A stretch of DNA of 64,000 nt from Bacteroidales bacterium (GTDB taxonomy: Bacteria > Bacteroidota > Bacteroidia > Bacteroidales > UBA4417): positions 3,478-67,477 of the forward strand of contig JBBQSY010000004.1 in the NCBI GenBank assembly GCA_038213495.1. The letters are read 5' to 3'. The notes beneath the pieces are model-generated. The model was not told the DNA's origin and did no database searches. It was given only the letters and a program-made list of their open reading frames with translations. Shown in pieces: positions 1-48,358 of this stretch. Positions within the stretch are counted from its first letter, which is position 1. Each line of letters begins with the position of its first letter. A program made the position numbers and the translations under genes.

Positions 1-374
1 GTTGACAAATGATTGCGGAAAAGATGTGTCATTTCTGAAACAACAGTTCCCATGATACATTTCTCAAATGGACAAACCTGTTTTTCGTGCGGACAACTTA
101 TTACTTTAACCTGGCCTTCAATTGCTTCGTAAATTTGTAATAATGTAATCTGATCAGGTAGTGCATTCAGTTTAAATCCGCCTGATGGCCCACGGTTCGA
201 CAACAGAAATCCCTCTTTAACAAGCCGTTGCATGACCTTTGCAACATGATGACGCGATGAACCTGTTATGTCGGCTATTTTTTGAACATTAATAGTTTCC
301 CCGGCGCGGGCAATAAGCACCATACCATGCATGCCTATTGAGGCGGCTTCGGAGTATGAGACAATTTTGGCCAT
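1..374 (-). CDS. Rrf2 family transcriptional regulator (N-terminus complete, C-terminus cut by window edge)
   Basis: Absent from the ORF track because it runs off the 5' edge. My reverse-strand translation from the ATG (complement of 372-374) reads MAKIVSYSEAASIGMHGMVLIARAGETINVQKIADITGSSRHHVAKVMQRLVKEGFLLSNRGPSGGFKLN... with no stop to position 1. This is an Rrf2/IscR-type winged helix followed by the Cys cluster CPHEKQVCPFEKC. Confidence 0.8.
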   Translation of the reverse strand, partial: MAKIVSYSEAASIGMHGMVLIARAGETINVQKIADITGSSRHHVAKVMQRLVKEGFLLSNRGPSGGFKLNALPDQITLLQIYEAIEGQVKVISCPHEKQVCPFEKCIMGTVVSEMTHLFRNHLS

Positions 375-521
375 TCTGTTATATAAGTATTTAATTGCTC
401 AAATGTCGGTATTTTTTTTTCAGTTCATCTACTTGTTATGTAATTTGAAGCTATTCTAAATAAGCCTTCTGGAATGGTTTTTGATCAAAGCAAGCTACAC
501 CTTAATTATATATCCGGAATT

Positions 522-1127
522 ATGTCGAACAAAAAAGTATTTATTGTCCTTGCAGGTTTTGTTGCTTTTCTTACTTCCTGCGATGTGCTTAACCAGGTAA
601 CGCAGGTAAGCAATCTCACCAAATGTGAATTCAGGCTCGAGTCGGTTCAGCAATTGAATCTGGCCGGAATAAATGTACAGAATGTAAAAAAAATGTCGGA
701 CCTCACTATGTTTGATGCAGCTAAACTTGCTTCAGCAGTAGCATCCCAGCAATTCCCGCTGGATTTTACATTGAATATAGAAGCAAAAAACCCGAATACA
801 GCAACTGCGGGAATGACACGTATTGACTGGATTCTTTTAATTGATGACATTGAAATGACCCGCGGAATTCTGGATAAGCAAATTACAATACCGGCCAATA
901 ACGGAATAGCAGTTATTCCCATGCAAATGCATGTTGACCTGCAAAAAGCATTGTCTGGTAAAAGTGCTGATGCTATTCTCAACTTTGGCATGAACCTGGC
1001 AGGAACCGGCAATACACCTACCCGCTTTACGGTACAGATGAAACCTACAATTACTGTAAATGGTTTCCCGATTACCTACCCGGGTTACCTGAATGTAAAA
1101 ACCGAGTACAGTGGTCAATCAAAATAA
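522..1127 (+). CDS. hypothetical lipoprotein
   Basis: The ORF is 474..1127. The internal ATG at 522 gives MSNKKVFIVLAGFVAFLTSC, a signal peptide plus lipobox Cys. No catalytic motif recognised; a LEA-2-like fold is only a weak impression. Confidence 0.6.
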   Translation: MSNKKVFIVLAGFVAFLTSCDVLNQVTQVSNLTKCEFRLESVQQLNLAGINVQNVKKMSDLTMFDAAKLASAVASQQFPLDFTLNIEAKNPNTATAGMTRIDWILLIDDIEMTRGILDKQITIPANNGIAVIPMQMHVDLQKALSGKSADAILNFGMNLAGTGNTPTRFTVQMKPTITVNGFPITYPGYLNVKTEYSGQSK

Positions 1128-1146
1128 TTCGTTATAATCCTGTTAC

Positions 1147-1506
1147 ATGCGCTTTAAAAAAATACTTCGTTATATTGCTTTAATACTTGGTTTCCAGGCC
1201 TCTGCTTTTTTTCTGTTTTTTCTGATTGCGGAAGGAGGCGCTGATCTTATAGAAGGCAAATTCAGGGTTATTCCCATCATGCTTATGATGATTTTATCTG
1301 TTGCTGGTTTTATCTGGGCAGTACCAAAACCCTTAAAAGGGAGCCTGGTTATGATAGCCGGGGGAGCGATTATGGTCATTTACCTTATGATCCTGGGAGG
1401 TATCAGTGAAATAACAATGGCATTGATGTATGGATTACCTTTTATAATTCCCGGATTACTGTTTTATTACGCTGCTGCCGGAATTACTGTGTCAGGAAGG
1501 AAATAA
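1147..1506 (+). CDS. small integral membrane protein, unknown function
   Basis: 119 aa and almost entirely hydrophobic, with about four helix-length segments. It starts 19 bp after the upstream lipoprotein gene. Confidence 0.55.
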   Translation: MRFKKILRYIALILGFQASAFFLFFLIAEGGADLIEGKFRVIPIMLMMILSVAGFIWAVPKPLKGSLVMIAGGAIMVIYLMILGGISEITMALMYGLPFIIPGLLFYYAAAGITVSGRK

Positions 1507-1554
1507 GTCAGGCTTTTACTTATTGGGCTGCCGTGGACGGCATAACCTGACTTA
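1504..1554 (+). terminator. nested hairpin overlapping the stop codon of the membrane-protein gene
   Basis: Perfect 9-bp inverted repeat TAAGTCAGG (1504-1512) / CCTGACTTA (1546-1554). It encloses an inner 5-bp stem TGCCG (1529-1533) / CGGCA (1538-1542). No clear T-tail. Confidence 0.35.
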
Positions 1555-1946
1555 CTTATCTGAACCATTTTCTGGATGCTTTTTTTTGCTCCCAACATAC
1601 TGTGGTCAAGCAAAGAAGAGCTGAAATCGTAGTTTAATCAATATAAAGACACCTCAAAACCGACTTTGCTAAGTTCATAAAACGGTAAAAAAAATCTGAA
1701 CTTTCTATATCCTATTTCCAACTATATGTTTACTTTCACCGCTTGAAACAAGGGACGGACCTTTGTGATTTGTAGTTGGTGATTTTATAATTCAAAAGAT
1801 TTATAAATATTTTAACTACTTGTTTTACAGGTTCAAATATGGAAAATTCATGTATTTTCCGGAATTTTCAGGAATTGCAGAGCTGAGTTCCTTAAAGTGA
1901 TAAAGAAAAATCAGGAATAGATTTTCACCTTTAAATAATAATAGAA

Positions 1947-3530
1947 ATGAGTAACAGTAGTACGGCCACCACACAACCCGGAGTTAATTTTGAACTAACA
2001 GATGTGGAAGGGTTAATGAGCCGGTTCCATTACACCGATGAAACCAAAGAGATAATACGCAACGAAAATCTTCTGCCTACTGGTGTTTTAGGCAGGCTGC
2101 ATAAAACATTCCCTCAGCATTCGGGATTAAAGGAAAAGGAAGAATTCCATTTCAACGACAAAAAACAATATGTCGGAATTGATGGTTTCAGAGAAATCAC
2201 AGCTATTCTCGACGCAAACGGGATTCATATCGGGCATTACGAGGAACGTGAACTTTTTATTCATATATACAGGTTCATGGCTACAAAACATGTATTGAAT
2301 ACAATCAAATGGGCTGATTTCCAAAAGGATTCGGTTTTTCAGTTGGTATTTCCACAACCAGGAATGGTACGCCCCGATGTTGCAAAAGCGTATCTTTCGG
2401 CAACTTCAGTTGAAGAAAAGGAAAGAATTGTCAGGGATTATATGATAGAGACTAATCCGCACGACGGGAAGCAGCAACTTAATAAGCCAACATTTATCAA
2501 TTCAAAAGGGGAGACGGAAATCCTGGAAGGAAGCCAGCACAAATATCCTCAATGCCAATTGATTTTTGATTCCCAGACTCAGAACTGTTTTGCTTTTTGC
2601 AACTATTGTTTCCGTCATGCACAGGTTCGCGGCGATGAGGATATGTTCATTCAGAAAGATATTAACCAGGTTCACGAATACCTCAAAAAACACAAAGAGA
2701 TTAGTGATGTACTGATAACGGGTGGTGATGCAGGATATCTGAAAGCTGAACGGTTCGAAGAGTACATAGTGCCTATTATTGAAGATCCTGAACTTTCGCA
2801 TATTAAAACCATCCGTATTGGTACACGTGTTCTTACTTTCAATCCTGAAATGGTTCTTTTGCCTTCATATGACCGTATGCTTGGTTTATTCAGGAAATTG
2901 AACGAAAATGGCATTCAACTGGTGTTTATGTCGCATTTTTCGACCCCGCGCGAACTTATGAATCCAAGTACAATAGCAGCCACACGCAGGCTGAAAGCCC
3001 ATGGGGTAACTTTAAAAAGTCAGAGTCCCATCATGAATCACATAAGTCTTTTTACTTATGATAACGGGCAGGTTGACATTGACCGTTCGGCACAAAACTG
3101 GATTGACCTTGGCAACCTGTTTGCCATGTTAGGTATTGGATTTCACTCCATGTATTGTGCCCGCCCAACGGGTGAACACCATTATTTCACACAACCGCTT
3201 GCCCAGATAAACAAAGTTTTCAGTAAAGTGTACCGCTCCCTGGCATCAATTAACAGACCGTCGAGGTATATTACCATGACTTCTTCGGCGGGTAAAATTT
3301 CGATGTTGGGTGAAGTTGAGCTTAACGGGGAAAAATTGTTTGCATTGAAGTTCAATGAATCCCGTAATATGGAATGGATGGACAAAGTATACCTGGCGAA
3401 ATACGACGAAACCCAGAATACTATTGCAAACCTGGTTCCATTTGGAACTGAAAAATACTTCTACGAAGATGAATTGGATGAAATCGAAAACAAATTGCAT
3501 TCCTCCATTGAATCGACCCGCATTAAATAG
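1947..3530 (+). CDS. KamA-family radical SAM / PLP 2,3-aminomutase homologue (substrate unknown)
   Basis: CFAFCNYC is the CxxxCxxC radical-SAM motif. The surrounding blocks align by eye to lysine 2,3-aminomutase: GSQHKYPQCQLIF..., LITGGDAG, IRIGTRV, MSHFSTPRE and SSAGK at the position of the PLP-lysine GGGGK block. Confidence 0.8.
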   Translation: MSNSSTATTQPGVNFELTDVEGLMSRFHYTDETKEIIRNENLLPTGVLGRLHKTFPQHSGLKEKEEFHFNDKKQYVGIDGFREITAILDANGIHIGHYEERELFIHIYRFMATKHVLNTIKWADFQKDSVFQLVFPQPGMVRPDVAKAYLSATSVEEKERIVRDYMIETNPHDGKQQLNKPTFINSKGETEILEGSQHKYPQCQLIFDSQTQNCFAFCNYCFRHAQVRGDEDMFIQKDINQVHEYLKKHKEISDVLITGGDAGYLKAERFEEYIVPIIEDPELSHIKTIRIGTRVLTFNPEMVLLPSYDRMLGLFRKLNENGIQLVFMSHFSTPRELMNPSTIAATRRLKAHGVTLKSQSPIMNHISLFTYDNGQVDIDRSAQNWIDLGNLFAMLGIGFHSMYCARPTGEHHYFTQPLAQINKVFSKVYRSLASINRPSRYITMTSSAGKISMLGEVELNGEKLFALKFNESRNMEWMDKVYLAKYDETQNTIANLVPFGTEKYFYEDELDEIENKLHSSIESTRIK

Positions 3531-3548
3531 CAGCAAGTTACTGTACAG

Positions 3549-4265
3549 ATGATAAATAAAATAGTTAATTCTGCCCGTGAAGCAGTTGCCGGTATCTCTG
3601 ATGGATCGTCCATACTCATAGGCGGGTTTGGTGAAGCCGGAAGCCCTATTGAACTCATACACGCTTTGATCGATCACGGTGCGAAGGACTTAACCGTCAT
3701 CAGCAATAATACAGGTAACGGTCATATCGGCCTTGCAGCGCTCATAGAAAACAGGCAGGTAAAAAAAATGGTTTGTTCTTTCCCACGCACAGCCAATTCT
3801 ATTGTTTTCCCGGAACTTTTCCGCAAAAGGGAAATCGAGCTCGAACTGGTTCCACAGGGCACCCTGGCAGAACGTATCAGGGCTGGTGGTGCTGGTATTC
3901 CGGCTTTTTACACACCCACTTCTGTTAATACCCCCCTTGCTGAGAATAAAGAAGTCAGGGCTTTCGATGGGAAATCCTTCGTGATGGAATATGGCATTAA
4001 GGCTGATTTCGCATTGGTAAAATGCAAAGTGGCTGACAGGTATGGAAACCTGCTTTATTACAAAACTGCCCGTAATTTTGGTCCGGTAATGTGTATGGCT
4101 GCGCGGACAACAATTGTTCAAACAAGCCAGCTTGTGGAATTGGGGGAAATTGATCCTGAAATTGTGATCACCCCCGGCATATTTGTAAACAAGGTTGTTC
4201 TGATAGAAGAACCAATAAGCGAGAATCAACTGATACGTGAGAACAGGAGGTATCCATGGGTATAA
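3549..4265 (+). CDS. 3-oxoacid CoA-transferase subunit A
   Basis: Blocks MINKIV...GGFGEAGSPIELI...VISNN...CSFPR...PQGTLAERIRAGGAGIPAFYTPT resemble ScoA/PcaI-type alpha subunits as I recall them. It starts 18 bp after the aminomutase gene. Confidence 0.88.
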   Translation: MINKIVNSAREAVAGISDGSSILIGGFGEAGSPIELIHALIDHGAKDLTVISNNTGNGHIGLAALIENRQVKKMVCSFPRTANSIVFPELFRKREIELELVPQGTLAERIRAGGAGIPAFYTPTSVNTPLAENKEVRAFDGKSFVMEYGIKADFALVKCKVADRYGNLLYYKTARNFGPVMCMAARTTIVQTSQLVELGEIDPEIVITPGIFVNKVVLIEEPISENQLIRENRRYPWV

Positions 4266-4909
4266 CAGAAGTAAAAGGCTGGAATAAAGAACAGATAGCT
4301 CAGAAAATAGCTTCAGATATTCCGGATGGTTCGTATGTAAACCTGGGTATCGGGTTACCTGAACTGGTTGCCAATTTTATTCCGGTTGACACTGAAGTTA
4401 TTTTTCACACTGAAAATGGATTGCTGGGCGTAGGGCCGTCGCCGTCGAAAGAAATGGAAGACGATGAGCTTATTAATGCAGGTAAGAAACCGGTAACAGC
4501 AATAAAAGGAGCCAGTTTTTTTCATCATGCCGACAGCTTTGCCATGGTGCGCGGCGGACATATAGATATTTGTGTGCTTGGAGCTTTTCAGGTTTCCGAA
4601 ACGGGTGATCTGGCTAACTGGTCCACCGGGGAAGCGAATGCTATTCCTGCCGTTGGAGGTGCTATGGACCTGGTACAGGGAGTAAAAACCATTGTTATCT
4701 TTACTCAGCATACAACTAAAAACGGAGAACCCAAAATCGTAAAGGCATGTACTTATCCGTTAACAGGTAAAAGCGTTGTGAGTTTTATTTATACCGATTA
4801 TGCTATTATTGACGTTAAACCTGAAGGCTTATTTGTACGTGAAATGGCTCCCGGTATCGACTTAGATTTCCTCAAAGCATGTACTGAAGCTGAATTGCAT
4901 TTATATTAA
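4256..4909 (+). CDS. 3-oxoacid CoA-transferase subunit B
   Basis: FHTENGLLG carries the (S/T)ENG catalytic-glutamate motif of family I CoA-transferase beta subunits. It overlaps subunit A by 10 bp. Confidence 0.88.
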   Translation: MGITEVKGWNKEQIAQKIASDIPDGSYVNLGIGLPELVANFIPVDTEVIFHTENGLLGVGPSPSKEMEDDELINAGKKPVTAIKGASFFHHADSFAMVRGGHIDICVLGAFQVSETGDLANWSTGEANAIPAVGGAMDLVQGVKTIVIFTQHTTKNGEPKIVKACTYPLTGKSVVSFIYTDYAIIDVKPEGLFVREMAPGIDLDFLKACTEAELHLY

Positions 4910-4929
4910 ACAAATTCTACTCAAAAATT

Positions 4930-6270
4930 ATGTCGTATACAAAATTTCCGGAAGGAAAAGAAAAGAACGAGGAGCAGCTACATGCGATGGCATGCGAGGT
5001 TTTACCAGGTGGAATAAGTCGCAATGTCATTTTTCGTAAACCACATCCTTATTATGTTTCCGAAGCTTCCGGAGCTTATGTTACGGATATTCATGGGGTA
5101 AAACGCGTTGATTTTGCAAATAATATTGCTTCGCTTATCCATGGCCATGCACATCCTAAAATTGTTGAAGCCGTATGTGAACAAATCAGGAAGGGTACTG
5201 CTTATACCCTGGGCACTGAAGTGGAAATTGAGCATGCCCGGCTTTTGTGCGACAGAGTTCCCGGATTTGATAAAATACGTTTCGTGAATTCAGGTACCGA
5301 AGCTGTTATGGCAATGATCAAAACCGCGAGGGCTTTTACCGGTAAATCTAAGATTGCAAAAGCCGAAGGAGGATATCACGGCAGTTTCGATACGGCCGAA
5401 GTGAGCCAGAGCTCAAGCCCTGCCACATGGGGTAATATCGACCATCCCAATAGTGTTCCTCATGTAAAAGGAACTCCTCAGGCTGTTCTTGATAATGTAG
5501 TAATTTATCCATACAACGACGTTGAGCGAACCATAAACATACTTAATGAGCATGCCGGTGAAATTGCCTGCGTACTCATCGATCCGGTCCCTCACCGCAT
5601 CGGAATGGTTCAGGCAAGTGAAGAGTTTGTTGAAGCGGTTTATAACTGGACCCGGGAAAACAATGCCTTGTTGTGTTTCGATGAGGTTATCTGTTTCAGG
5701 GTTGGGTATGAAGGAGCACAATCGAGTTATAAGGTTAAACCTGATCTTACTTCATTAGGTAAAATTATAGGAGGAGGATTCCCTGTAGGTGCTTTTGCCG
5801 GAAGGCAGGATATCATGAATATTCTGGATCCAGGAGGCAGCGATTTCAGATTTGCACTTTCCGGTACGTTCTCGGCAAACCCGGTTTCGATGATTGCCGG
5901 TAAGGTTGCAATGGAAATGTTCGATCGTGAAGCTGTGAAAAAAATAAACCAGGTTTCACAAACAGCTATCAGTCAGATTTATGAAGCAGGCAAACTGGCC
6001 GGAATTCCTCTAAGTATAACAGGAAAAGGATCCATGTTCAAGGTGCATTTCAGGGAAACTCCGCCGGTTACTTATCGCGATTGCTACGAAGACGCCGGAG
6101 TTAAGAGTATAATGAATCGTTTCCTCGATTCTATGTACGAAGAAGGTGTAATTATGATCAACTCGTGTTCGAGTGTTGTATCTACAGTAATTACTCAAAA
6201 AGAGGTTGATATACTTAGCGAGGCCATGCTGAAAAGTTTCAGGGTTATTAAACCATATCTTAATCATTAA
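4930..6270 (+). CDS. class-III (GSA-aminomutase-like) PLP aminotransferase
   Basis: SGTEAVM, GGYHGSFD, FDEVICFRVGYEGAQ and PDLTSLGKIIGGGFPVGAFAGR (PLP-lysine in LGK) are the HemL-like class-III signature. Confidence 0.85.
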   Translation: MSYTKFPEGKEKNEEQLHAMACEVLPGGISRNVIFRKPHPYYVSEASGAYVTDIHGVKRVDFANNIASLIHGHAHPKIVEAVCEQIRKGTAYTLGTEVEIEHARLLCDRVPGFDKIRFVNSGTEAVMAMIKTARAFTGKSKIAKAEGGYHGSFDTAEVSQSSSPATWGNIDHPNSVPHVKGTPQAVLDNVVIYPYNDVERTINILNEHAGEIACVLIDPVPHRIGMVQASEEFVEAVYNWTRENNALLCFDEVICFRVGYEGAQSSYKVKPDLTSLGKIIGGGFPVGAFAGRQDIMNILDPGGSDFRFALSGTFSANPVSMIAGKVAMEMFDREAVKKINQVSQTAISQIYEAGKLAGIPLSITGKGSMFKVHFRETPPVTYRDCYEDAGVKSIMNRFLDSMYEEGVIMINSCSSVVSTVITQKEVDILSEAMLKSFRVIKPYLNH

Positions 6271-6279
6271 AATTGATTT

Positions 6280-7482
6280 ATGAATGAAGTTTTTATTTGC
6301 GACGCTATACGTACTCCCATCGGCAGGTATGCGGGAACTTTGTCTTCGGTACGAACCGATGACCTGGCTGCCAAACCGATCCGGGCTTTACTTGAACGCA
6401 ATCCGGGGATCAGGGCTGCAGATATTGATGATGTAATTCTTGGATGTGCCAACCAGGCAGGCGAAGATAACCGGAATGTAGCCAGAATGGCTTTACTGCT
6501 GGCAGGTTTGCCAGACTCGGTTTCAGGAATGACTGTGAACCGCTTGTGCGGTTCCGGAATGGAAGCTGTTGGTGCAGCCGCAAGAGCGATAAAAAGCGGT
6601 GAATTGCAACTGGTATTTGCAGGAGGCGTCGAAAGCATGTCGAGAGCTCCTTTCGTTATGGCAAAAGCGACTGAGCCTTTTGCCCGCCAGGCTGAAATAT
6701 ATGATACAACTATTGGATGGCGCTTTATAAACAGGAAACTCCAGCAGCTTTACGGGGCTGATTCAATGATCGAAACTGCTGAAAACCTGGCAGAAGAGTA
6801 TAAAATCAGTCGCGAAGACCAGGACTTGTTCGCATACCGGAGCCAGTTAAAAGCAAAACAAGCTCAGGAGAACGGATGGTTTGACAAGGAAATTTTGCCT
6901 GTTGATGTTCAACTTTCCAAATCCGAGTCAGTCAGGTTTGAGCGCGATGAACATCCCCGTTTATCTGCACCCGAAAAGCTCGCGACATTAAAAGTTATTT
7001 CGAGGCCCGGAGGCACAGTAACTGCAGGCAATGCTTCAGGTGTAAATGATGGTGCAGCCGCTCTTATCATTGCTTCCGAAGCTGCTGTAAAAGCATACAA
7101 TCTGAAGCCACTGGCAAGGATTTTGGGTATGCAAAGTGCAGGCGTGCCACCACGGATTATGGGCATAGGGCCTGTGCCGGCAACCAATAAATTATTGGCT
7201 TTAACAGGGCTTACACTCGATCAGTTTGATATTATTGAACTTAATGAGGCCTTTGCAGCCCAATCGCTTGCATGTACCAGGATGCTGAAAATTGCCGACA
7301 ACGATCCGCGACTGAATCCGCAGGGGGGAGCAATTGCACTGGGTCATCCGCTGGGGATGAGTGGTGCCCGCCTTATAACAACGGCCGTTCATCAGCTTCA
7401 ACGTAATAAACTCAACAAGGCCCTATGTACCATGTGTATCGGGGTTGGACAAGGTATTGCAATGGCCATCGAAAGGGTTTGA
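6280..7482 (+). CDS. acetyl-CoA C-acyltransferase (thiolase), PaaJ/PcaF-like
   Basis: NRLCGSGMEA holds the nucleophilic Cys. NEAFAAQ, GHPLGMSGARL and CIGVGQGIA are thiolase signatures. The N-terminus EVFICDAIRTPIGRYAGTLSSVRTDDLAA...ILGCANQAGEDNRNVARMA closely resembles 3-oxoadipyl-CoA thiolases as I recall them. Confidence 0.9.
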   Translation: MNEVFICDAIRTPIGRYAGTLSSVRTDDLAAKPIRALLERNPGIRAADIDDVILGCANQAGEDNRNVARMALLLAGLPDSVSGMTVNRLCGSGMEAVGAAARAIKSGELQLVFAGGVESMSRAPFVMAKATEPFARQAEIYDTTIGWRFINRKLQQLYGADSMIETAENLAEEYKISREDQDLFAYRSQLKAKQAQENGWFDKEILPVDVQLSKSESVRFERDEHPRLSAPEKLATLKVISRPGGTVTAGNASGVNDGAAALIIASEAAVKAYNLKPLARILGMQSAGVPPRIMGIGPVPATNKLLALTGLTLDQFDIIELNEAFAAQSLACTRMLKIADNDPRLNPQGGAIALGHPLGMSGARLITTAVHQLQRNKLNKALCTMCIGVGQGIAMAIERV

Positions 7483-7616
7483 TATAGACTTCTTCCATAG
7501 AACCTCTGGGTCCTTAAATTCCATCCTAAAACACTTTTTTGTGATTTATACTGCAAGTCTGAGTAGACGCGATTTGCAGAGTCTATCTTTGGGCACTCTC
7601 CTTTTTTTTATTTTCT

Positions 7617-7624
7617 TAACTTTG
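7617..7624 (+). promoter_or_regulatory. candidate Bacteroidota -7 box (TAACTTTG) upstream of the nucleotidyltransferase gene
   Basis: Matches TAnnTTTG and lies 25 nt before the ATG at 7649. The nearest upstream TTTG (7588-7591) is spaced 25 nt away, longer than the usual ~19-21 nt. Confidence 0.3.
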
Positions 7625-7648
7625 CAGGTCAAAATTGTAACCTAAGGT

Positions 7649-9082
7649 ATGGAATTCGAATTATTGAGTAAGGGTATTACCGGAAAGCTGTTGAAAGTGA
7701 TTTCCGATTCTGCCATGCAGTTGGAAACGGAGGCATTTGTGATAGGAGGTTTTGTTCGTGATTCCCTGATGGGCCGTACTTGTAAGGATGTAGATATAGT
7801 AACTACAGGGAATGGAATATTGCTTGCCCAGAAGGCAGCAGAGATTCTTGGCATTAAGAAAGTCAGTGTTTTTAAAACGTATGGTACCGCCATGTTTATG
7901 TACCACGATTTACAGGTTGAATTTGTCGGTGCCAGAAAAGAATCCTACAGTGCAGATTCACGCAACCCGGATGTATCGCCCGGGAGTATCGAGGATGATC
8001 AGAACCGGCGCGATTTTACCATAAACGCCATGGCAATAAGTCTGCAAAAAGCTGATTATGGAAAACTGATTGACCCGTTCAACGGCGTTGATGATCTGAA
8101 TCAAAAACTTATCCGGACTCCGCTTGATCCGGATGTAACATTCGCCGACGATCCGCTTCGCATGATGCGCGCCATACGCTTTGCAACCCAGCTTAATTTC
8201 CGTATTTTGCCCGAAACGCTCGATGCAATTACACGAAATGCGTCGCGTATCAGTATCATTTCGATGGAACGCATCAGTGATGAACTGAATAAGATAGTAA
8301 TGACGGAGAAACCTTCCGTTGGTTTTTACCTGTTGGACGAAACGGGTTTACTCGAACTGATTTTACCTGTTTTTACAGCACTCAAAGGTGCTGAATTTGT
8401 TGACGGGAAAGGACATAAGGATAATTTTAAGCATACGCTGGAGGTACTCGACAGGATAGCACCCAACACGGACAATCTATGGTTACGGTGGTCTGCACTG
8501 CTACACGACATTGCAAAGCCGGTGACACGCCGGTTCGATCCACAAACAGGATGGACCTTTCACGGACATGAGTTTAAAGGAATGAAAATGATACCTTCGG
8601 TATTCAGTCATTTACGTTTGCCGCTTAATGAGAAAATGAAATACGTGCAGAAAATGGTACAGCTTCATTTAAGGCCGATTGTGCTGGCCGAAGATGTGGT
8701 AACCGACTCTGCAATACGCCGGCTGCTGATGGATGCCGGCGATGATATCGATGATTTAATGACACTCTGTGAAGCCGACATTACCTCGAAGAACCAGGCG
8801 AAAGTAAAACGTTATTTGGCTAATTTTGAGCTCGTCAGGCACAAGTTAAAAGAAATAGAAGCAAAAGATAATCTGCGTAACTGGCAGCCTCCGGTTTCGG
8901 GTGAGCAAATTATGGAAGTATTCGGACTTGAACCTTGCCGTCAGGTTGGCATCATAAAATCAGTCATCAGGGAAGCCATTCTTGAAGGTTCAATTCAAAA
9001 TAATTATGAGGAAGCCTGCCAGTTGATGCTGCAGGAAGGATTAAAAATGGGGTTAACAATTGTAGAACAGCCTCTTATCTGA
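7649..9082 (+). CDS. CCA-adding tRNA nucleotidyltransferase / poly(A) polymerase family protein with HD domain
   Basis: GGFVRDSLMGRTCKDVDIV is the GGxVRD...DxD nucleotidyltransferase head. RRDFTINAM is present, followed by the HD-domain block LLHDIAKP. Confidence 0.85.
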   Translation: MEFELLSKGITGKLLKVISDSAMQLETEAFVIGGFVRDSLMGRTCKDVDIVTTGNGILLAQKAAEILGIKKVSVFKTYGTAMFMYHDLQVEFVGARKESYSADSRNPDVSPGSIEDDQNRRDFTINAMAISLQKADYGKLIDPFNGVDDLNQKLIRTPLDPDVTFADDPLRMMRAIRFATQLNFRILPETLDAITRNASRISIISMERISDELNKIVMTEKPSVGFYLLDETGLLELILPVFTALKGAEFVDGKGHKDNFKHTLEVLDRIAPNTDNLWLRWSALLHDIAKPVTRRFDPQTGWTFHGHEFKGMKMIPSVFSHLRLPLNEKMKYVQKMVQLHLRPIVLAEDVVTDSAIRRLLMDAGDDIDDLMTLCEADITSKNQAKVKRYLANFELVRHKLKEIEAKDNLRNWQPPVSGEQIMEVFGLEPCRQVGIIKSVIREAILEGSIQNNYEEACQLMLQEGLKMGLTIVEQPLI

Positions 9083-9167: not shown

Positions 9168-9752
9168 ATGCAAGTATATCGTTTCAGGCTTTTGTATGAA
9201 GAACAGGATGATTTTCTGCGCGACATTGAAATTAAGCCTGGGCAGACCTTTAAAGATTTTCATGATAGCATCCTTCAATCGGTCGACATTGAAGGCAAAG
9301 AACTTGCCTCATTTTTTATCTGTGATCCGCAATGGAACAAGCAGCGTGAAGTCACATTGATCGACATGGGATTAAAGATTCCCGATACTGATGTAGACGA
9401 TGATGACAGGAAGCCTATAAAAGTTCCGATTCCTGTAATGATTATGGCGGAAGTGAAAATACGGGAAGTGATTGAGGATCCACACCAACGTATATTGTTC
9501 GAATATAATTTCCTGAATCCGGTTACATTTTTTATTGAATTAATGAAAATTGTTGACGGAGACCCTAAAAAAACGTATCCGTTGTGTGTGAAAAAGGAAG
9601 GAACTCTGGCTCCGTCAACTGCACCAAATTTCCTCTCATTTCTGGACGATCCGGACGAGGACGCTATGCTTGGCGAATTGAATAAAATGATTGAAAGCGG
9701 CGATCTCGAAGAAGAAATTGATGAAAACTACACTACGGAACCTGAGTGGTAG
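9168..9752 (+). CDS. hypothetical protein with strongly acidic C-terminus
   Basis: 194-aa ORF between the nucleotidyltransferase gene and miaA. The N-terminal part (VYRFRLLYEE...FKDFHDSILQSV) is faintly reminiscent of MM3350/pRiA4b-ORF3-like domains. The tail is Asp/Glu-rich. Confidence 0.6.
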   Translation: MQVYRFRLLYEEQDDFLRDIEIKPGQTFKDFHDSILQSVDIEGKELASFFICDPQWNKQREVTLIDMGLKIPDTDVDDDDRKPIKVPIPVMIMAEVKIREVIEDPHQRILFEYNFLNPVTFFIELMKIVDGDPKKTYPLCVKKEGTLAPSTAPNFLSFLDDPDEDAMLGELNKMIESGDLEEEIDENYTTEPEW

Positions 9753-15358: not shown

Positions 15359-17578
15359 ATGGCAATTCCATTAACTGAAATAGAGAGTACTTTTTCCAAC
15401 TTATGCAACCTTGTGTATGCTAACCGCCTAAAGGAAGCGTTGAATCAACTCAGGGTTCTGATGGAAGGAATGCATGTTGCTGATTTTACCTTACAGTACG
15501 AAGATCTTAATCAGACATATCGCATGCTCCTTGAATATAATTTCAGGGGAGTTCCTGATCCTCAGCGGGATACGATTTTTGAAAAACTTAAAGTATCCCT
15601 GCTCGAATTGTCTGATAAAGTCCGCCAACACGCATTTGCCCAGACCGGTATGCATATTTACCAGCTAAAATCGCGTATTGAAACAGAGAAAGAGATCGCA
15701 AAGGAAGAAGCAACAAGGAGGATAGATAATTATTCGTTCGAACTGGAATTTGCCAAACTGCTAAGTGATACTGATTTATCCACGCATAAAGCGGATGGTG
15801 AAACTCTTCCGTCCATTTCGCCAAAACTGTTCCAGTTGATGTGGCTCACGGATAAGTACACCGAAACAGACCTTTTGCTCATAAAAGCCATACGCGAATC
15901 GGTTTCGCTGCCATGGTACGAAAAATCCCTGGCTGTAAGTGCTATTACGCTGAGCCTGATCAACTGTTTTGATAAAGAGAAGTTCACGGTTCTTTGCGAA
16001 TTTTATAACGACCGTCAGCCGCAGGTGTGGCAACGTGCCTTCTCCGGGCTTATTACAGCAGTATTCATTTACAATAAAAGGCTTGAGCTTTATCCCACCT
16101 TACACGAACAGTTTTTGAAATATTCGGCTGACGAGACTTTTGTGACCGATCTGAATAATTTTCTCATTCAAATCCTGAAGGCACTTGAAACGGAAAATAT
16201 CACCCGAAAGTTCCGTGAAGAAATTCTGCCTGATGTTCAGAAATTCGAATCCAAGATCCGTGAAAAACTCGACATTGATAATATCATCACTAATGACATT
16301 ATTGAAGATAAAAACCCCGACTGGGAGCAGATTTTTGAGGATAGTCCCGATTTGCTGAATAAGATTGAAAAGATGTCGGAAATGCAAATGGAGGGTCTTG
16401 ATTTGTTTATGGGCACATTTGCTATGCTTAAGAATTTCGATTTTTTCAGGGAGATATCCAACTGGTTCCGACCGTTTTATAAGGAAAATGATACAGCTCA
16501 GAATTCAATAGGTGATGAGATTCAGGGGAAATGGGATTACCTCGCTGCCCTCGAAGATTCCTTTTATATGTGTAATTCCGATAAATATTCCTTCTGTTTC
16601 AACATAAAGCATTTGCCTGATGAACAAGGGCGTAATATTATAAGCCTGTTCAATATGGAAGCGGAAAGCTTGCGTGAAATAACAAATGAGGACGGGCTGC
16701 TTAATAAGCCGGGAAAGGATACATTCATTTTTACGCAGTATATCCAGGATATGTACAGGTTTTTTAAATTGCATCCTTTCCGGGCCGACTTTCGCGATAT
16801 ATTCAGCCTGCCCTGGGATATTTCCGATAACTGGCTGGTGAAAAATCTTTCTGACGATAAACTTATTCTCCGCAATGCCGCTGAATTTCTTTTTATAAAG
16901 ATGCATTATCCGGAGGCTTCCGCAATGTTTCTGGTTCTGGCCACAAAACCAGATCCTGACCAGGCAGTATTCGAAAAATTAGCCTATTGCTACCAGATGA
17001 TGGGAAATTACACTGCCGCCCTCGAAAATTATAAAAAGGCTGAATTATTTGATACCAACCGCCTTTGGAGTTTGAAAAAGATAATATTCTGTTACAGGAA
17101 ACTGGGCGACAACAAGGCTGCATTAAAGTGGAGCCTCGAGGCAGCATCCCTCGATCCTGAAGATGCATATATACAAACTATGCTCGGTAATTGCTACCTC
17201 GATCTTCACCGGTTCGATACGGCCCTGGAGCACTATTTTAAAGTTGAGATTCTTGCGCCGGAAAATAAGAAAGTGCTGCGTCCGATTGCCTGGTGTTGTT
17301 TTGTGCTTGGCAAACTGGATCTGGCCCAAAACTACTTTCAGCGTATTATCGCCGAAGGTTCAACAGCAAATGACCTGATCAATGCCGGCCATGTTGAATT
17401 ATGCCTGGGAAGCAAACCTAAAGCGATGGAAAGTTACATGGCTGCTCTTGCTTCCGGCGGAATAAACCTGGCTCAGTTTACCGAAACACTTGATTTTGAT
17501 AAGAAATATCTTTTTACCAATGGGATAGATTCATCAGAAATACAACTTATTACCGATTATATCCGGTTCAGGGATTGA
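15359..17578 (+). CDS. TPR repeat-containing protein
   Basis: The ORF from 15320 has a TTG start; the first ATG is at 15359. The C-terminal third has tandem TPR-like repeats (AYCYQMMGNYTAALENYKKAE, IFCYRKLGDNKAALKWSLEAA, GNCYLDLHRFDTALEHYFKVE). Confidence 0.75.
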   Translation: MAIPLTEIESTFSNLCNLVYANRLKEALNQLRVLMEGMHVADFTLQYEDLNQTYRMLLEYNFRGVPDPQRDTIFEKLKVSLLELSDKVRQHAFAQTGMHIYQLKSRIETEKEIAKEEATRRIDNYSFELEFAKLLSDTDLSTHKADGETLPSISPKLFQLMWLTDKYTETDLLLIKAIRESVSLPWYEKSLAVSAITLSLINCFDKEKFTVLCEFYNDRQPQVWQRAFSGLITAVFIYNKRLELYPTLHEQFLKYSADETFVTDLNNFLIQILKALETENITRKFREEILPDVQKFESKIREKLDIDNIITNDIIEDKNPDWEQIFEDSPDLLNKIEKMSEMQMEGLDLFMGTFAMLKNFDFFREISNWFRPFYKENDTAQNSIGDEIQGKWDYLAALEDSFYMCNSDKYSFCFNIKHLPDEQGRNIISLFNMEAESLREITNEDGLLNKPGKDTFIFTQYIQDMYRFFKLHPFRADFRDIFSLPWDISDNWLVKNLSDDKLILRNAAEFLFIKMHYPEASAMFLVLATKPDPDQAVFEKLAYCYQMMGNYTAALENYKKAELFDTNRLWSLKKIIFCYRKLGDNKAALKWSLEAASLDPEDAYIQTMLGNCYLDLHRFDTALEHYFKVEILAPENKKVLRPIAWCCFVLGKLDLAQNYFQRIIAEGSTANDLINAGHVELCLGSKPKAMESYMAALASGGINLAQFTETLDFDKKYLFTNGIDSSEIQLITDYIRFRD

Positions 17579-18660: not shown

Positions 18661-21099
18661 TTGAAAAAAATAATTTTCATCACTATAATAATATTGCTAT
18701 CAATCAGCACGATAGCAAAATCCGACAATTTAATAATTGAAAAAGCCAGTTTATCAGGAAAAATAATTGATAGTAAAACAGGTGAATCATTACCCGGAGT
18801 TGCCGTTTATCTCCCTGATTTAAAAATCGGTACAATCTCAGCAGCTGACGGAACTTATAAACTGGATAATCTACCTAAAACCAGGGTATTGGTTCAGGTT
18901 ACTTTTATCGGTTATAAGCTCATAGCCGAGACAATTGATTTGAGCCTGACATCAAACAGGGATTTTGAAATGGAAGTATCAGTAACAGAGCTTAACGAAG
19001 TAGTTGTAACCGGTATGTCGAAGGCTGCCGAAAGAAACCGCACACCGACTCCCATATCAATCATCCCTGCTCTCCAACTGCTTCAGGGAACTTCATCAAA
19101 TATAATTGATGCCATTGCAAAACAACCAGGTATAACGCAGATATCCACAGGGCCGGGAATTTCAAAACCGGTAATCCGCGGTCTTGGTTATAACCGGATT
19201 ATTACCCTGATCGACGGTATCAGGCAGGAAGGACAGCAGTGGGGCGATGAGCATGGCATTGAAATAGATGAATTTTCGGTGAGTAAGGTTGAAATATTAA
19301 AAGGTCCGGCCAGTTTATCCTATGGATCTGATGCCATGGCAGGAGTTATTAATTTTATTGCCCAACCGACTTTGCCTGAAGGCTTAATTGAAGGAAAAAT
19401 AGTATCCGAATACCAGACTAATAACGGTTTATTTGGAGCCTCAGTCAATGTTGCAGGAAATAAAAAGGGTTTTATCTGGGATATACGTTTCAGTAATAAA
19501 TTGGCACATGCTTATCAGAACAATTACGACAGGTACGTCTTCAATTCCGGTTACAAAGAAAATTCCGGTACTGCAATTATCGGGATAAATAAATCCTGGG
19601 GATACTCACATCTTCATCTTAGCATGTATAACATGAAACCTGGTATTGTTGAGGGTGAGCGCGACAGTATTTCAGGCCGTTTCATAAAGCCGGTTATTCT
19701 AGGTAGTAATGAAGCCGGTTATGTTCCGGCAACAAATAATGATTTCCTGTCCTATAATGCTACTATTCCGTACCAGGAAATAAGTCATTATAAAGCTGTT
19801 ATAAATAATAGTTTTATTATGGGCAATTCCACCCTGAAGGCTACCCTGGGTTGGCAACAGAACCGGCGGAAAGAGTTTGGGGATATTTTATCACCCGATC
19901 AGTATGGCTTGTACTTTTATCTGAATACCATCAATTATGATCTTCGCTTAATACTCCCTGATTATAATGGATTAAATATTTCCTTTGGGGTGAATGGAAT
20001 GCAGCAGAACTCACGGAATAAAGGGACCGAATTCCTGGTGCCGGCATACAAGCTCTTTGATGCTGGAATATTTGCCATTGCCCGTAAATCATACGATAAA
20101 TTTGAAATCAGCGGTGGCTTACGTTATGATTTGCGGTTTGAAAAAGGTGAAGATCTTTTTCTGGATGCAAATGGTATTCCTACCGAAAATCCTCTCGATA
20201 ACTCAATTCACAGGTTTGCAGCATTTAATGCAACGTATTCCGGTTTTTCGGGAAGCCTGGGCGCGACTTACCAGTTTTCGGAAAAACTTTTCACTAAAGT
20301 GAATATTTCCCGTGGTTACCGCGCTCCGAATATCGGAGAAATTGGCTCTAACGGGGTACATGAAGGCACGCTGAGATACGAATCGGGCGATCCGGCCTTG
20401 AAACCTGAAAATAGCCTTCAGCTGGATTATGCTTTGGGATTTAATTCTGAACATATCTCAGCAGGATTGGATCTGTTTTCCAACAATATACAGAACTATA
20501 TATATCTGCATAAAGCTGAAAGTATTTCGGGTGGTGATTCCATTCGTGACGGATACAGTGTTTTTAAATTTACCTCGGGAAATGCCATTCTCAACGGTGG
20601 AGAACTTACTATTGATATCCATCCTCACCCTCTGGACTGGCTCCATTTCGAGAATTCATTTTCATATGTTAATTCAGTGTTGAAAAATCAGCCGGATTCG
20701 TCAAAATACCTTCCACTGACACCACCTGCAAAACTATCATCCGAAATAAAAGCGATATCCGGCCACCTGGGTAAGCACCTGGCAAATGCATTTATAAAAT
20801 TCGGGCTGGAATACTACTTCAGGCAGAACAGGTTTTATTCTGCAAATGCCACAGAAACAGCGACTCCGGGTTATACTCTTCTGAATGCTGGTATAGGAGC
20901 AGATATAATAAAAGGCAATAAAACATTATTTTCCTTGTATGCGAGCGCTGATAATTTACTCGATGTTTCGTACCAGAGCCACTTAAGCAGGCTGAAATAT
21001 GCGCCTGAAAATAATTTTACCGGCAGAAACGGGGTTTTCAATATGGGCCGAAATTTTAGTTTTAAAGTTATAGTTCCGGTTGGAATATCGAAAAAATAA
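18661..21099 (+). CDS. TonB-dependent receptor with N-terminal CarboxypepD_reg-like domain
   Basis: TTG start with signal peptide MKKIIFITIIILLSISTIAKS. LSGKIIDSKTGESLPGVAVYL...GTYKLDNLP is the carboxypeptidase-regulatory-like domain. Plug blocks EVVVTG and DGIRQEGQQWGDEHG follow, then a long beta-barrel region with a terminal aromatic-rich strand. Confidence 0.88.
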   Translation: MKKIIFITIIILLSISTIAKSDNLIIEKASLSGKIIDSKTGESLPGVAVYLPDLKIGTISAADGTYKLDNLPKTRVLVQVTFIGYKLIAETIDLSLTSNRDFEMEVSVTELNEVVVTGMSKAAERNRTPTPISIIPALQLLQGTSSNIIDAIAKQPGITQISTGPGISKPVIRGLGYNRIITLIDGIRQEGQQWGDEHGIEIDEFSVSKVEILKGPASLSYGSDAMAGVINFIAQPTLPEGLIEGKIVSEYQTNNGLFGASVNVAGNKKGFIWDIRFSNKLAHAYQNNYDRYVFNSGYKENSGTAIIGINKSWGYSHLHLSMYNMKPGIVEGERDSISGRFIKPVILGSNEAGYVPATNNDFLSYNATIPYQEISHYKAVINNSFIMGNSTLKATLGWQQNRRKEFGDILSPDQYGLYFYLNTINYDLRLILPDYNGLNISFGVNGMQQNSRNKGTEFLVPAYKLFDAGIFAIARKSYDKFEISGGLRYDLRFEKGEDLFLDANGIPTENPLDNSIHRFAAFNATYSGFSGSLGATYQFSEKLFTKVNISRGYRAPNIGEIGSNGVHEGTLRYESGDPALKPENSLQLDYALGFNSEHISAGLDLFSNNIQNYIYLHKAESISGGDSIRDGYSVFKFTSGNAILNGGELTIDIHPHPLDWLHFENSFSYVNSVLKNQPDSSKYLPLTPPAKLSSEIKAISGHLGKHLANAFIKFGLEYYFRQNRFYSANATETATPGYTLLNAGIGADIIKGNKTLFSLYASADNLLDVSYQSHLSRLKYAPENNFTGRNGVFNMGRNFSFKVIVPVGISKK

Positions 21100-21153
21100 T
21101 CCAAAAGTAAGGGCATTTAAATGATACAAAAACATGTTACGATATCCCTGAAA

Positions 21154-36673: not shown

Positions 36674-36765
36674 TAAATTTACTTTTCGTATTCATTTCTA
36701 TCCTGGTATTGTTCAATGATCCTGCTTATCATTGATTTTCTCTTTTTTAATTCTATCATACAAAT

Positions 36766-36784
36766 GCACAACACAATGTTGTGC
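36766..36784 (+). terminator. hairpin between the four-helix-bundle gene and the DUF1015 gene
   Basis: GCACAAC-acaat-GTTGTGC forms a 7-bp perfect stem. It is followed by TGATAATTTGTT, a weak U-tract. Confidence 0.4.
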
Positions 36785-36827
36785 TGATAATTTGTTAAAA
36801 AGCTCACCTGAAATTAAATCACAACCC

Positions 36828-38078
36828 ATGGCAATTCTTAAAGCATTTAAAGGTTTACGGCCACCTGTTAATATTGTAAAGCAATTAGCATCAAGGCCTT
36901 ATGATGTGTTAAACTCTGAAGAAGCCCGGCAGGAAGCGAAAGACAATCCTTATTCGTTACTCAGGGTTACGAAAGCTGAAATTGATCTGCCCAAAGATGT
37001 TGACGTTCATGGAGAAGAAGTTTACAATAAAGTGGTTGAGAACTTTTCCGCCTTTATTGACAAAAAATGGCTGGTTCAGGATAGTGATGAAAAATTATAC
37101 ATCTATGCCCAGACCATGGATGGCCGCACACAATATGGAATTGTTGGTTGTACCAGTATCGAAGATTATTTTAATAACAAAATCAAAAAGCATGAATTAA
37201 CACGAAAGGACAAAGAAGAAGACCGGATGATTCATGTGCGGATTACCAATGCCAATGTCGAACCCGTTTTTTTTTCCTATCCTGCAAATAAAAGTATTGA
37301 CGAAATTGTTTCAAAAATTGTTACCCATAATAAACCTATGTACGATTTTGTAGCCGATGATGGATTTGGTCATCATTTCTGGACAATTGACGACAAGGTT
37401 ACTATCAATAGAATTATTGAAATATTTGATCAGGAAATACCAAGCCTGTATGTTGCTGACGGCCATCATCGTACTGCAGCTGCGGCATTGGTAGGCAAGG
37501 AAAAACGTAAGAATAATCCCAACCATACCGGAAAAGAGGAATACAATTATTTTATGTCGGTACTTTTTCCAGATAATCAACTGAAGATTATCGATTATAA
37601 TCGGCTGGTAAAAGATTTGAATAACTTCAGTAGCAAGGAATTTTTGCAGGAACTTAATAAAGTTTTTATTGTCGAAGGTAAAGGCGATGAATTATATACC
37701 CCTTCTTCCTTACACAATTTTGCAATGTACTTTGAAGGAGAATGGTATTCGTTAACGGCAAAAGAAGGAACGTTTAACGACAATGACCCTATCGGCCTAC
37801 TTGACGTTACAATACTCTCCAGCCTGGTGTTGGATAATATCCTGGATATTAAAGACCTGCGCACTTCCACCCGGGTTGATTTTGTTGGGGGTATCCGTGG
37901 TTTAGGCGAACTTAAAAAGAGAGTGGATAGTGGAGAAATGAAAGCTGCTTTTGCTCTTTTTCCTGTATCGATGAAACAATTAATCGATATTGCTGATACC
38001 GGTAATATTATGCCTCCCAAAACAACATGGTTTGAACCTAAATTGCGCAGTGGCCTGGTGATGCATCTGCTCACCTAG
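36828..38078 (+). CDS. DUF1015 domain-containing protein
   Basis: MAILKAFKGLRP... is the typical N-terminus and the ADGHHRTAAA hallmark is present. The ORF-track start at 36732 adds a Cys-rich extension that overlaps the hairpin above, so the ATG at 36828 is preferred. Confidence 0.82.
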   Translation: MAILKAFKGLRPPVNIVKQLASRPYDVLNSEEARQEAKDNPYSLLRVTKAEIDLPKDVDVHGEEVYNKVVENFSAFIDKKWLVQDSDEKLYIYAQTMDGRTQYGIVGCTSIEDYFNNKIKKHELTRKDKEEDRMIHVRITNANVEPVFFSYPANKSIDEIVSKIVTHNKPMYDFVADDGFGHHFWTIDDKVTINRIIEIFDQEIPSLYVADGHHRTAAAALVGKEKRKNNPNHTGKEEYNYFMSVLFPDNQLKIIDYNRLVKDLNNFSSKEFLQELNKVFIVEGKGDELYTPSSLHNFAMYFEGEWYSLTAKEGTFNDNDPIGLLDVTILSSLVLDNILDIKDLRTSTRVDFVGGIRGLGELKKRVDSGEMKAAFALFPVSMKQLIDIADTGNIMPPKTTWFEPKLRSGLVMHLLT

Positions 38079-45827: not shown

Positions 45828-45853
45828 TTTCCTGGTTCCTTAATTTTACTACA

Positions 45854-48208: not shown

Positions 48209-48225
48209 ATTCAACAAGTATGATT

Positions 48226-48250: not shown

Positions 48251-48358
48251 CTAAGAGATTGAAGTGCAAATTGTTATATACTGTAAGTGAGCATATAACC
48301 AAGACGTATTAAAAGCATACATAATCCACAATACATACTATATTAAAAGAAATAAATA

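Follow-up and report, generated by a model that had tools for sequence, protein, structure and literature searches.

Five consecutive genes at positions 1947-7482 of a stretch of DNA from a Bacteroidales bacterium (GenBank assembly GCA_038213495.1, contig JBBQSY010000004.1; the whole stretch of 64,000 nucleotides is referred to here as the window) form one operon, with operon-like junctions and a gene order that is kept across phyla. We propose that this operon encodes a catabolic route in which an acidic alpha-amino acid would be converted to a beta-amino acid, then to a beta-keto acid and a beta-ketoacyl-coenzyme A (CoA), which would finally be split into acetyl-CoA and an acyl-CoA of shorter chain length. 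Our best reading, put forward tentatively since in our judgement its probability falls a little short of even, is that L-2-aminoadipate would pass through 3-aminoadipate, 3-oxoadipate and 3-oxoadipyl-CoA to give succinyl-CoA and acetyl-CoA. An initial annotation of this DNA had suggested the same succession of alpha-amino, beta-amino, beta-keto and beta-ketoacyl-CoA compounds, and as a prediction this chain is supported by the conserved gene order, the enzyme families and the active-site residues described below. The authors of that annotation also knew of no account of the gene set as a pathway, and our literature search likewise found no description of the cluster. As judged from their sequences, the enzyme types all come from known families, and the novelty would lie in the subfamily and specificity of the aminomutase and in an upper branch that feeds a known lower pathway.

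The open reading frame (ORF) listing of the window places the five genes on the plus strand, with junctions in gene order of +18, -10, +20 and +9 bp that agree exactly with those first reported for this DNA, and the gap downstream of the last gene is 166 bp. The genes and the names used for their products are as follows.

AM (ORF 1): 1947-3530, plus strand, 527 aa; homologue of the KamA superfamily, of the radical S-adenosylmethionine (SAM), pyridoxal 5'-phosphate (PLP) type
CtA: 3549-4265, plus strand, 238 aa; 3-oxoacid CoA-transferase subunit A, PcaI/ScoA type
CtB: 4256-4909, plus strand, 217 aa; 3-oxoacid CoA-transferase subunit B, PcaJ/ScoB type, overlapping CtA by 10 nt
AT: 4930-6270, plus strand, 446 aa; class-III aminotransferase, similar to glutamate-1-semialdehyde (GSA) aminomutase
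Thl: 6280-7482, plus strand, 400 aa; thiolase of the PcaF/PaaJ type

With one genome scanned per species, 158 relatives of AM came to light; the best 80 of these 158 loci were analysed, with gene order read by tblastn using the five window proteins and with a locus counted as informative where at least 4.2 kb lies downstream of AM (63 loci). The initial annotation had made its proposal depend on conservation of the synteny among relatives, and the colinear order AM-CtA-CtB-AT-Thl is complete in 55 of the 63 informative loci, which come from several phyla; in addition, all 17 loci with short downstream sequence, those of Cloacimonadota and SAR324 among them, hold every gene that fits. Complete sets are present in Bacteroidota, Ignavibacteriota, Acidobacteriota (Aminicenantes), Krumholzibacteriota and Gammaproteobacteria. 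In detail, the carriers include Bacteroidales (Lentimicrobiaceae, Salinivirgaceae and others), Ignavibacteriae, Melioribacteraceae, Cloacimonadota, SAR324, Aminicenantes and Krumholzibacteriia, together with the cultured Gammaproteobacteria Shewanella, Pseudoalteromonas and Vibrionaceae, and AM is also found in cultured Colwellia. The Shewanella carriers include the strains S. schlegeliana JCM 11561, S. corallii DSM 21332 and S. atlantica HAW-EB5. One of the eight exceptions, a Bacteroidales locus (L023), has the cluster without the thiolase.

The flanks of the cluster vary between loci, and when all flanking ORFs were clustered every other gene family was limited to at most 16 of 81 loci. The neighbours that do recur are a regulator of the XRE-cupin (PuuR-like) type, a divergent LysR gene, a sodium/solute symporter (SSS) family protein (7 loci) and housekeeping genes. 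The position taken in the window by the intergenic leader upstream of AM is occupied by the XRE-cupin regulator gene in 16 other loci, and by the divergent LysR gene in Gammaproteobacteria and SAR324. The recurrent regulators and amino-acid-type transporters fit the catabolism of an imported amino acid, and to judge from these comparisons the five genes have the character of a catabolic module that is self-contained and horizontally mobile. At one locus, in a SAR324 metagenome-assembled genome (MAG), the divergent LysR gene has as neighbours a DadA-like D-amino-acid dehydrogenase gene and four genes for a polar-amino-acid ABC transporter (L052:3070-7462), the transporter components matching glutamine-, cystine- and Lys/Arg/Orn-type models.

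The KamA-superfamily protein AM

AM carries the motifs CFAFCNYC (aa 214-221), TGGD (aa 258-261) and SAGK (aa 447-450, with K450), the first of which had been pointed out in the initial annotation, and the CxxxCxxC pattern is invariant in family samples of 18 and 30 members. The protein is a remote member of its superfamily, with a score of 75.4 bits on TIGR00238, below the cutoff of 199.2. On the equivalog models for AblA, EpmB and the glutamate and arginine 2,3-aminomutases it scores 56-68 bits overall, with cutoffs of 369-650 (67.8 bits for AblA, cutoff 525.4; 55.8 for EpmB, cutoff 369.3; 66 for glutamate 2,3-aminomutase, TIGR04368, cutoff 650). At these scores AM falls outside all four groups, including the AblA and EpmB groups that had been named as possible non-catabolic homes for it, and its family makes up a single cluster at 50% identity (P0121) among the 1.8 billion representatives searched, with orthologues at least 59% identical across phyla. 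The public names of AM are “hypothetical protein” (NCBI) and “L-lysine 2,3-aminomutase” (JGI).

The sole sequence match of AM in the PDB, by phmmer and by family profile, is the lysine 2,3-aminomutase KamA (2A5H), and it covers the radical-SAM core only. An AlphaFold (AF2) model of AM has a predicted local distance difference test score (pLDDT) of 80.6 and a predicted template-modelling score (pTM) of 0.83, and a Foldseek search with this model gives 2A5H as the only significant match (E 1.8e-13, about 430 columns, target-normalised template-modelling score 0.66), which suggests that the likeness extends to the whole fold, as the match takes in the C-terminal domain of KamA; other radical-SAM folds are matched by the model at E >1e-3. 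Identity to KamA over the structure match is approximately 16-17%. AM has in common with KamA/AblA the fold, the CxxxCxxC motif, the SAM-binding GGD motif, the carboxylate Arg and the PLP Lys. It differs from the rest of the superfamily in having Arg and Thr in place of two acidic residues, in the absence of the Zn-site cysteines of KamA, and in about 100 additional aa at the N-terminus and an insertion of 12 aa. The genomic setting differs as well, since AM is encoded with catabolic beta-ketoacid genes, whereas known KamA relatives sit with kamDE, ablB, efp or antibiotic genes.

Residues were placed in register with KamA by an alignment bridged by 42 orphan relatives and validated with Escherichia coli EpmB, two annotated AblA proteins and BlsG; a global hhalign alignment of AM and KamA was discarded, as its C-terminal register had zero confidence. 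The KamA sequence used as reference was validated: it has the correct length, 11 landmark residues in the right place and a 160-residue stretch that equals the PDB sequence exactly, and it is also 82% identical to a real Acetoanaerobium gene. In the bridged alignment C125, C129 and C132 of KamA correspond to C214, C218 and C221 of AM, the SAM motif SGGD of KamA aligns with TGGD, R134 corresponds to R223, and K337 corresponds to K450, with Lys in 41 of the 42 orphan cousins. We take R134 to be the Arg that binds the alpha-carboxylate in KamA and K337 to be its PLP-binding Lys.

The two positions that the initial annotation had singled out as decisive for the substrate, D293 and D330 of KamA, are R406 and T443 in AM. 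The Arg is invariant in the AM family, and the same column holds Asp in all five of the enzymes with basic substrates (KamA, the two AblA, EpmB and the arginine enzyme BlsG). The second position is Thr or Ser across the AM family, and in the lysine enzymes it is acidic throughout (D in KamA and in both AblA, E in EpmB). Since the site for the distal group is thus charge-reversed (D293 to R406), an acidic side chain would be favoured and lysine disfavoured. The residue analysis therefore argues for an acidic amino acid as the substrate of AM; it tells against lysine and, with less force, against leucine, and it contradicts the JGI name. We propose that AM represents a separate, new subfamily of the KamA superfamily in which the catalytic machinery of an aminomutase appears to be retained. 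With a confidence that stays somewhat below even, we would go further and regard AM as the founding member of a family of 2,3-aminomutases dedicated to 2-aminoadipate (or another acidic amino acid), and the operon as a previously unrecognised, oxygen-independent entry to the lower beta-ketoadipate pathway.

The relatives used as a bridge belong to a large orphan clade of the KamA superfamily (P0124-P0270; for example L089:8001-9248) whose members have approximately 400-480 aa and the motif PYYMFxxRD-TG. The search gave 1971 matches at E<1e-3, none of which reaches any NCBIfam cutoff. The genomic contexts of P0124, P0137 and P0129 are uninformative, and none of the three is a macrolactam or IdnL4-type cluster.

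The transaminase, CoA-transferase and thiolase

AT matches the Pfam family Aminotran_3 (PF00202) with 210 bits and has the PLP-lysine motif SLGK at aa 275-278. It had been described as a HemL-like class-III enzyme, and this holds at the level of the family; AT does not qualify as HemL itself and lies below both HemL cutoffs (357 bits against 527 for the equivalog TIGR00713, and 358.8 against 398 for PRK00062). A search of the PDB gives 6K8H as the best solved relative (352 bits), followed by ForI (315 bits), HemL enzymes (about 240), the beta-transaminases 2YKU and 6IZ9 (197) and 4AO9 (188). The enzyme of 6K8H is an omega-transaminase of Sphaerobacter thermophilus whose substrates are free beta- and gamma-amino acids (PMC10589169). 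AT thus resembles the GSA-aminomutase-like transaminases 6K8H, 2YKU (Mesorhizobium) and 4AO9 (Variovorax), which convert a free beta-amino acid to a beta-keto acid; these three have been characterized as biocatalysts, mostly on aromatic or aliphatic beta-amino acids and with no defined pathway context.

The other precedent for AT is found in alternative lysine fermentation, in which the HemL-like enzyme Kat transaminates 3-aminobutyryl-CoA and is encoded beside a thiolase gene (Perret et al. 2011, PMC3149608). The Kat (CLOAM0809) locus was recovered from metagenomes with the published primer, and the gene termini match that report. AT is only 26% identical to Kat (L082:2741-3985; 130 bits), so AT as the Kat orthologue, part of the outcome under which the initial annotation would have seen here a split copy of the known pathway, is ruled out. 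Thl is 42% identical to the acetoacetyl-CoA thiolase of Cloacimonas that is linked to Kat, and the published AtoD and AtoA termini differ from those of CtA and CtB. Because the closest solved relative of AT acts on free beta-amino acids and AT is far from Kat, AT more probably acts on a free beta-amino acid than on a CoA ester. We predict that it is a beta-amino-acid:2-oxoacid transaminase with a dicarboxylic beta-amino acid as substrate. The recovered locus is of the Cloacimonas type (L082:1170-3985), with the thiolase and Kat genes followed by that for CTP synthase, and there is no aminomutase or CoA-transferase gene beside them.

The CoA-transferase subunits point to the PcaIJ/ScoAB type. 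CtA scores 348.6 bits on pcaI_scoA (TIGR02429, cutoff 128.5) and 201 bits on the AtoD model, which is below its cutoff of 315, in agreement with the earlier impression that the A subunit is like ScoA/PcaI rather than AtoD. CtB scores 302.4 bits on pcaJ_scoB (TIGR02428, cutoff 243.55), and its catalytic-Glu motif TENG, also recorded in the initial annotation, is at aa 52-55. The best PDB match of CtA is Bacillus subtilis ScoA (3CDK), the ScoAB structures scoring 227 and 204 bits. By these comparisons CtAB is a family-I 3-oxoacid CoA-transferase of the PcaIJ/ScoAB type and not of the AtoDA type.

The thiolase had been called PcaF-like, and it passes both the pcaF equivalog TIGR02430 (661 bits, cutoff 597) and PRK09050 (681 bits, cutoff 605), with approximately 309-361 bits on models of acetoacetyl-CoA thiolases. 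Its best PDB match is the beta-ketoadipyl-CoA thiolase of Pseudomonas putida (6PCA, 546 bits), acetoacetyl-CoA thiolases reaching about 320 bits, and the catalytic motifs NRLCGSG, GHPLG and CIGVGQG are all present. From its sequence Thl clearly belongs to the clade of dicarboxylyl-CoA (PcaF/PaaJ) thiolases.

A direct comparison for the lower half of the route is provided by plasmid pRM41A of Sinorhizobium meliloti, which is among the best plasmid relatives of CtA and carries a protocatechuate cluster with pcaHGCD, an IclR regulator, pcaIJ and pcaF. CtA is 61%, CtB 55% and Thl 65% identical to PcaI, PcaJ and PcaF of this plasmid, and the cluster-linked homologues in the 80 loci show 57-64%, 51-61% and 60-65% identity to them, respectively. 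The genes pcaIJ and pcaF form the established last segment of the beta-ketoadipate pathway, and the operon has in common with them a two-subunit family-I CoA-transferase that is followed, in the same order, by a PcaF thiolase. The two systems differ in what feeds this segment, which is an aminomutase and a transaminase here and the ring-cleavage enzymes pcaHGBCD there. The cluster is also found in strictly anaerobic lineages, in which the oxygenase-dependent upper part of the beta-ketoadipate pathway cannot run.

Proposed pathway and competing explanations

On this basis we put forward a hypothetical pathway in four steps. AM would convert L-2-aminoadipate to 3-aminoadipate by moving its amino group from C2 to C3 (step 1), and AT, probably with 2-oxoglutarate or pyruvate as the accepting 2-oxoacid, would transfer this group away to give 3-oxoadipate (step 2). 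CtAB would then form 3-oxoadipyl-CoA with succinyl-CoA as the donor (step 3), and Thl would split it into acetyl-CoA and succinyl-CoA, the latter re-priming step 3 (step 4). The net reaction would be 2-aminoadipate + 2-oxoacid + CoA to succinate + acetyl-CoA + amino acid. Since the succinyl-CoA formed is itself the CoA donor, the five genes would suffice, and the route would be redox-neutral and independent of oxygen. The sequences show the gene set, its conservation, the protein families and which active-site residues are kept or replaced; from these we infer each of the reactions, whether step 2 precedes step 3 and, above all, which amino acid is used.

The initial annotation had listed four candidate substrates, of which the two acidic ones stand, 2-aminoadipate ahead of glutamate, and the other two, lysine and leucine, are disfavoured by the charge reversal. 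We favour 2-aminoadipate because of the PcaF- and PcaIJ-like thiolase and transferase, the charge reversal that would suit a lysine isostere, and the self-sufficiency of the module. 2-Aminoadipate is isosteric with lysine, but its distal group is oppositely charged, and this relationship may be said to mirror the change of D293 to Arg.

Several points weigh against 2-aminoadipate. The part of the argument that concerns the pocket depends on roles that we assume for D293 and D330, which in KamA presumably bind the epsilon-ammonium of lysine; the source of these roles, and of the corresponding residues of the glutamate enzyme, is said to be work of Lepore et al. in 2005 and of Ruzicka and Frey in 2007. 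Arg at the D293 column is also found in 25 of the 42 orphan cousins, and it may not necessarily be a specific signature of 2-aminoadipate. The PcaIJ/ScoAB models operate at the level of the subfamily and do not separate specificity for 3-oxoadipate from that for acetoacetate, and neither do the identities and PDB scores. Genes for the conversion of lysine to 2-aminoadipate (e.g., saccharopine or lysine 6-dehydrogenase, LAT, or 2-aminoadipate 6-semialdehyde (AASA) dehydrogenase) are present neither in the window nor linked to the cluster in the 80 loci, and our literature search found no pathway with 3-aminoadipate as a metabolite. In seven Colwellia/Litorilituus loci AM lies apart from the other four genes, beside a LysR gene. 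Lastly, glutamate is far more abundant than 2-aminoadipate, and because it is directly available it would explain more simply the lack of linked upstream genes.

The main rival is accordingly glutamate, to which we give a small but appreciable probability. AM would convert L-glutamate to beta-glutamate and AT would convert this to 3-oxoglutarate, in what would be a new route of glutamate fermentation, and the 3-oxoglutaryl-CoA formed from it would yield malonyl-CoA and acetyl-CoA; alternatively, decarboxylation would lead through acetoacetate and acetoacetyl-CoA to two acetyl-CoA. The charge reversal at the specificity position suits any acidic side chain, and in glutamate 2,3-aminomutase, too, D293 has presumably changed to a basic residue, the equivalents of D293 and D330 being Lys and Asn. 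Upstream enzymes are never linked to the cluster, as would be the case for an abundant and directly available amino acid, and the cluster is carried by anaerobes that degrade amino acids and by bacteria of sediments or the sea. About 450 bp downstream of the thiolase, Shewanella schlegeliana encodes a near-GadC antiporter of the glutamate/gamma-aminobutyrate (GABA) type (L066:16062-17543; 661.8 bits, GadC cutoff 673.5), a hint from one locus towards glutamate rather than 2-aminoadipate, and the GlnPQ-like ABC system of the SAR324 locus points the same way. However, the thiolase is of the PcaF type, at 60-65% identity and 661 bits, and not an acetoacetyl-CoA thiolase, AM scores only a tenth of the cutoff on the glutamate 2,3-aminomutase equivalog, malonyl-CoA as a product needs further enzymes outside the cluster, and our literature search found no natural catabolic route through beta-glutamate.

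A different acidic amino acid is a less probable substrate and in our view an unlikely one. The candidates are 2,6-diaminopimelate from peptidoglycan, thiolysis of which would give acetyl-CoA and gamma-glutamyl-CoA, 2-aminopimelate, or a D-isomer. Thiolases of the PcaF/PaaJ type take C6-C8 dicarboxylyl-CoAs, as is generally known for PaaJ, the module is self-contained, and the ABC components with matches to cystine-type models and the adjacent DadA-like dehydrogenase in the SAR324 MAG would be compatible with such a substrate; nevertheless, the idea is purely speculative, the neighbours come from a single locus, and the intermediates are without precedent.

It is comparably improbable that AM is not an aminomutase at all and performs some other radical chemistry on the KamA scaffold, in which case the operon would not run from an alpha-amino to a beta-amino and a keto acid. 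The approximately 16-17% identity to KamA, scores below every family cutoff, the loss of the Zn-site cysteines, the N-terminal extension of some 100 aa and the 12-aa insertion are all compatible with this explanation, as is the fact that all cousins are uncharacterized. On the other hand, the residues for SAM cleavage, PLP attachment (K450) and the alpha-carboxylate (R223) are all conserved, and the partnership with a beta-transaminase-like enzyme and beta-ketoacid enzymes is what the product of a 2,3-aminomutase requires.

Slightly less probable again is that AT, CtAB and Thl degrade beta-amino acids from the environment (e.g., beta-glutamate in sediments), with AM working in reverse for salvage or for synthesis of an osmolyte. 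The reversibility of aminomutases is established, the carriers are sediment and marine bacteria, and AM is unlinked in Colwellia; nevertheless, the operon starts with AM in 55 of the 63 informative loci, and by sequence this explanation is hard to tell from the pathway that we propose.

A split or partial copy of known (alternative) lysine fermentation, or a leucine beta-keto pathway, has the lowest probability of all and is already largely refuted: the enzyme classes are superficially those of Perret et al. 2011 (PMC3149608), and as in that pathway a HemL-like class-III enzyme would remove a beta-amino group in anaerobic-digester Bacteroidota and Cloacimonadota, but Kat works on the CoA ester, with an acetoacetyl-CoA thiolase and AtoDA, and needs KamA, KamDE, Kdd and Kce, whereas AT and Thl are distant from Kat and its thiolase, the transferase is of the PcaIJ/ScoAB type with termini unlike those of AtoD/AtoA, the Asp and Asp/Glu of the lysine enzymes are replaced by Arg and Thr in AM, and the positive charge of the pocket suits leucine poorly. 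The genes kamDE, kdd, kce and kal are absent from the window, as the initial annotation had stated, and no such gene is recurrent in the regions flanking the cluster in the 80 loci.

Genomic surroundings and significance

Upstream of the five genes lies a feature with a presumed regulatory function.

Intergenic leader: 1507-1946, plus strand, 440 bp between the ORFs at 1147-1506 and 1947-3530; presumed promoter/regulatory region

The leader has no Rfam match at E<=1, the Rfam scan is negative across positions 1-9000 of the window, and a scan near the cluster in 13 loci found no element adjoining it. Scans for sigma-70 promoters and terminators gave results at chance level, with scan models that do not cover Bacteroidota promoters. 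In a Salinivirgaceae MAG an Acido-Lenti-1 small RNA (RF01687, 42.7 bits) lies at L039:19623-19669, about 4 kb downstream of the thiolase, which ends at approximately 15718.

Some loci have further genes close to the cluster. In a Krumholzibacteriia MAG a gene for a hotdog-fold (PaaI-like) thioesterase lies directly 3' of the thiolase gene (L060:15116-15523). In Shewanella loci two or three tandem UspA-like genes flank the cluster (L056:6525-8351; L066:7388-8327; L079:7323-8350 and 15994-16425); their similarity to UspA was judged by eye, and they match no NCBIfam model. In Colwellia psychrerythraea ND2E (L076) homologues of AT and the thiolase lie on the other strand, some 8 kb away from AM (19219-21509, minus), and the CoA-transferase genes would fall outside the sequence covered; the six other Colwellia/Litorilituus loci show AM and the LysR gene alone.

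Elsewhere in the window there are housekeeping genes for a CCA-adding-like enzyme, MiaA, an S9 peptidase, LigA, DapA, Lon and SerC- and SerA-like proteins, as well as genes for an M14 peptidase with a tail of the type IX secretion system (T9SS), a hallmark of Bacteroidota, and for a hybrid sensor kinase. A PRiA4_ORF3-like protein is encoded at 9168-9752, between the CCA-adding-like gene and miaA, and a DUF1015 protein at 36732-38078, adjoining the SerC- and SerA-like genes. A region of low GC content (0.32-0.36) at 45045-62997 is a locus for polysaccharide export and biosynthesis, with Wza-, Wzc-, Wzm- and Wzt-like genes, GT1 glycosyltransferases and epimerases, and within it three consecutive ORFs without a Pfam match (50747-54423) are followed by an ATP-grasp protein (54532-55563).

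The essence of the proposed pathway is that an aminomutase and a transaminase would deliver a beta-keto acid to enzymes of the PcaIJF type. If this is true, radical-SAM 2,3-aminomutases, whose substrates so far are lysine, arginine and glutamate, would have a new class of substrate, and several phyla of anaerobic and sediment bacteria would share a new pathway of amino-acid catabolism. The pathway would account for the presence of PcaIJF-type genes, classically tied to the oxygen-dependent degradation of aromatic compounds, in strict anaerobes. With 2-aminoadipate as the substrate, it would allow strict anaerobes and marine sediment bacteria to turn 2-aminoadipate, and by extension lysine, into succinate and acetyl-CoA in a redox-neutral manner, by way of the new metabolite 3-aminoadipate. 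The operon would also supply natural enzymes for the conversion of 2-aminoadipate to 3-oxoadipate; with regard to the engineering of lysine to adipate, it has been noted that enzymes for the deamination of 2-aminoadipate are not known (PMC7241714). Cultured Shewanella, Colwellia and Pseudoalteromonas are among the carriers, making the hypothesis directly testable.

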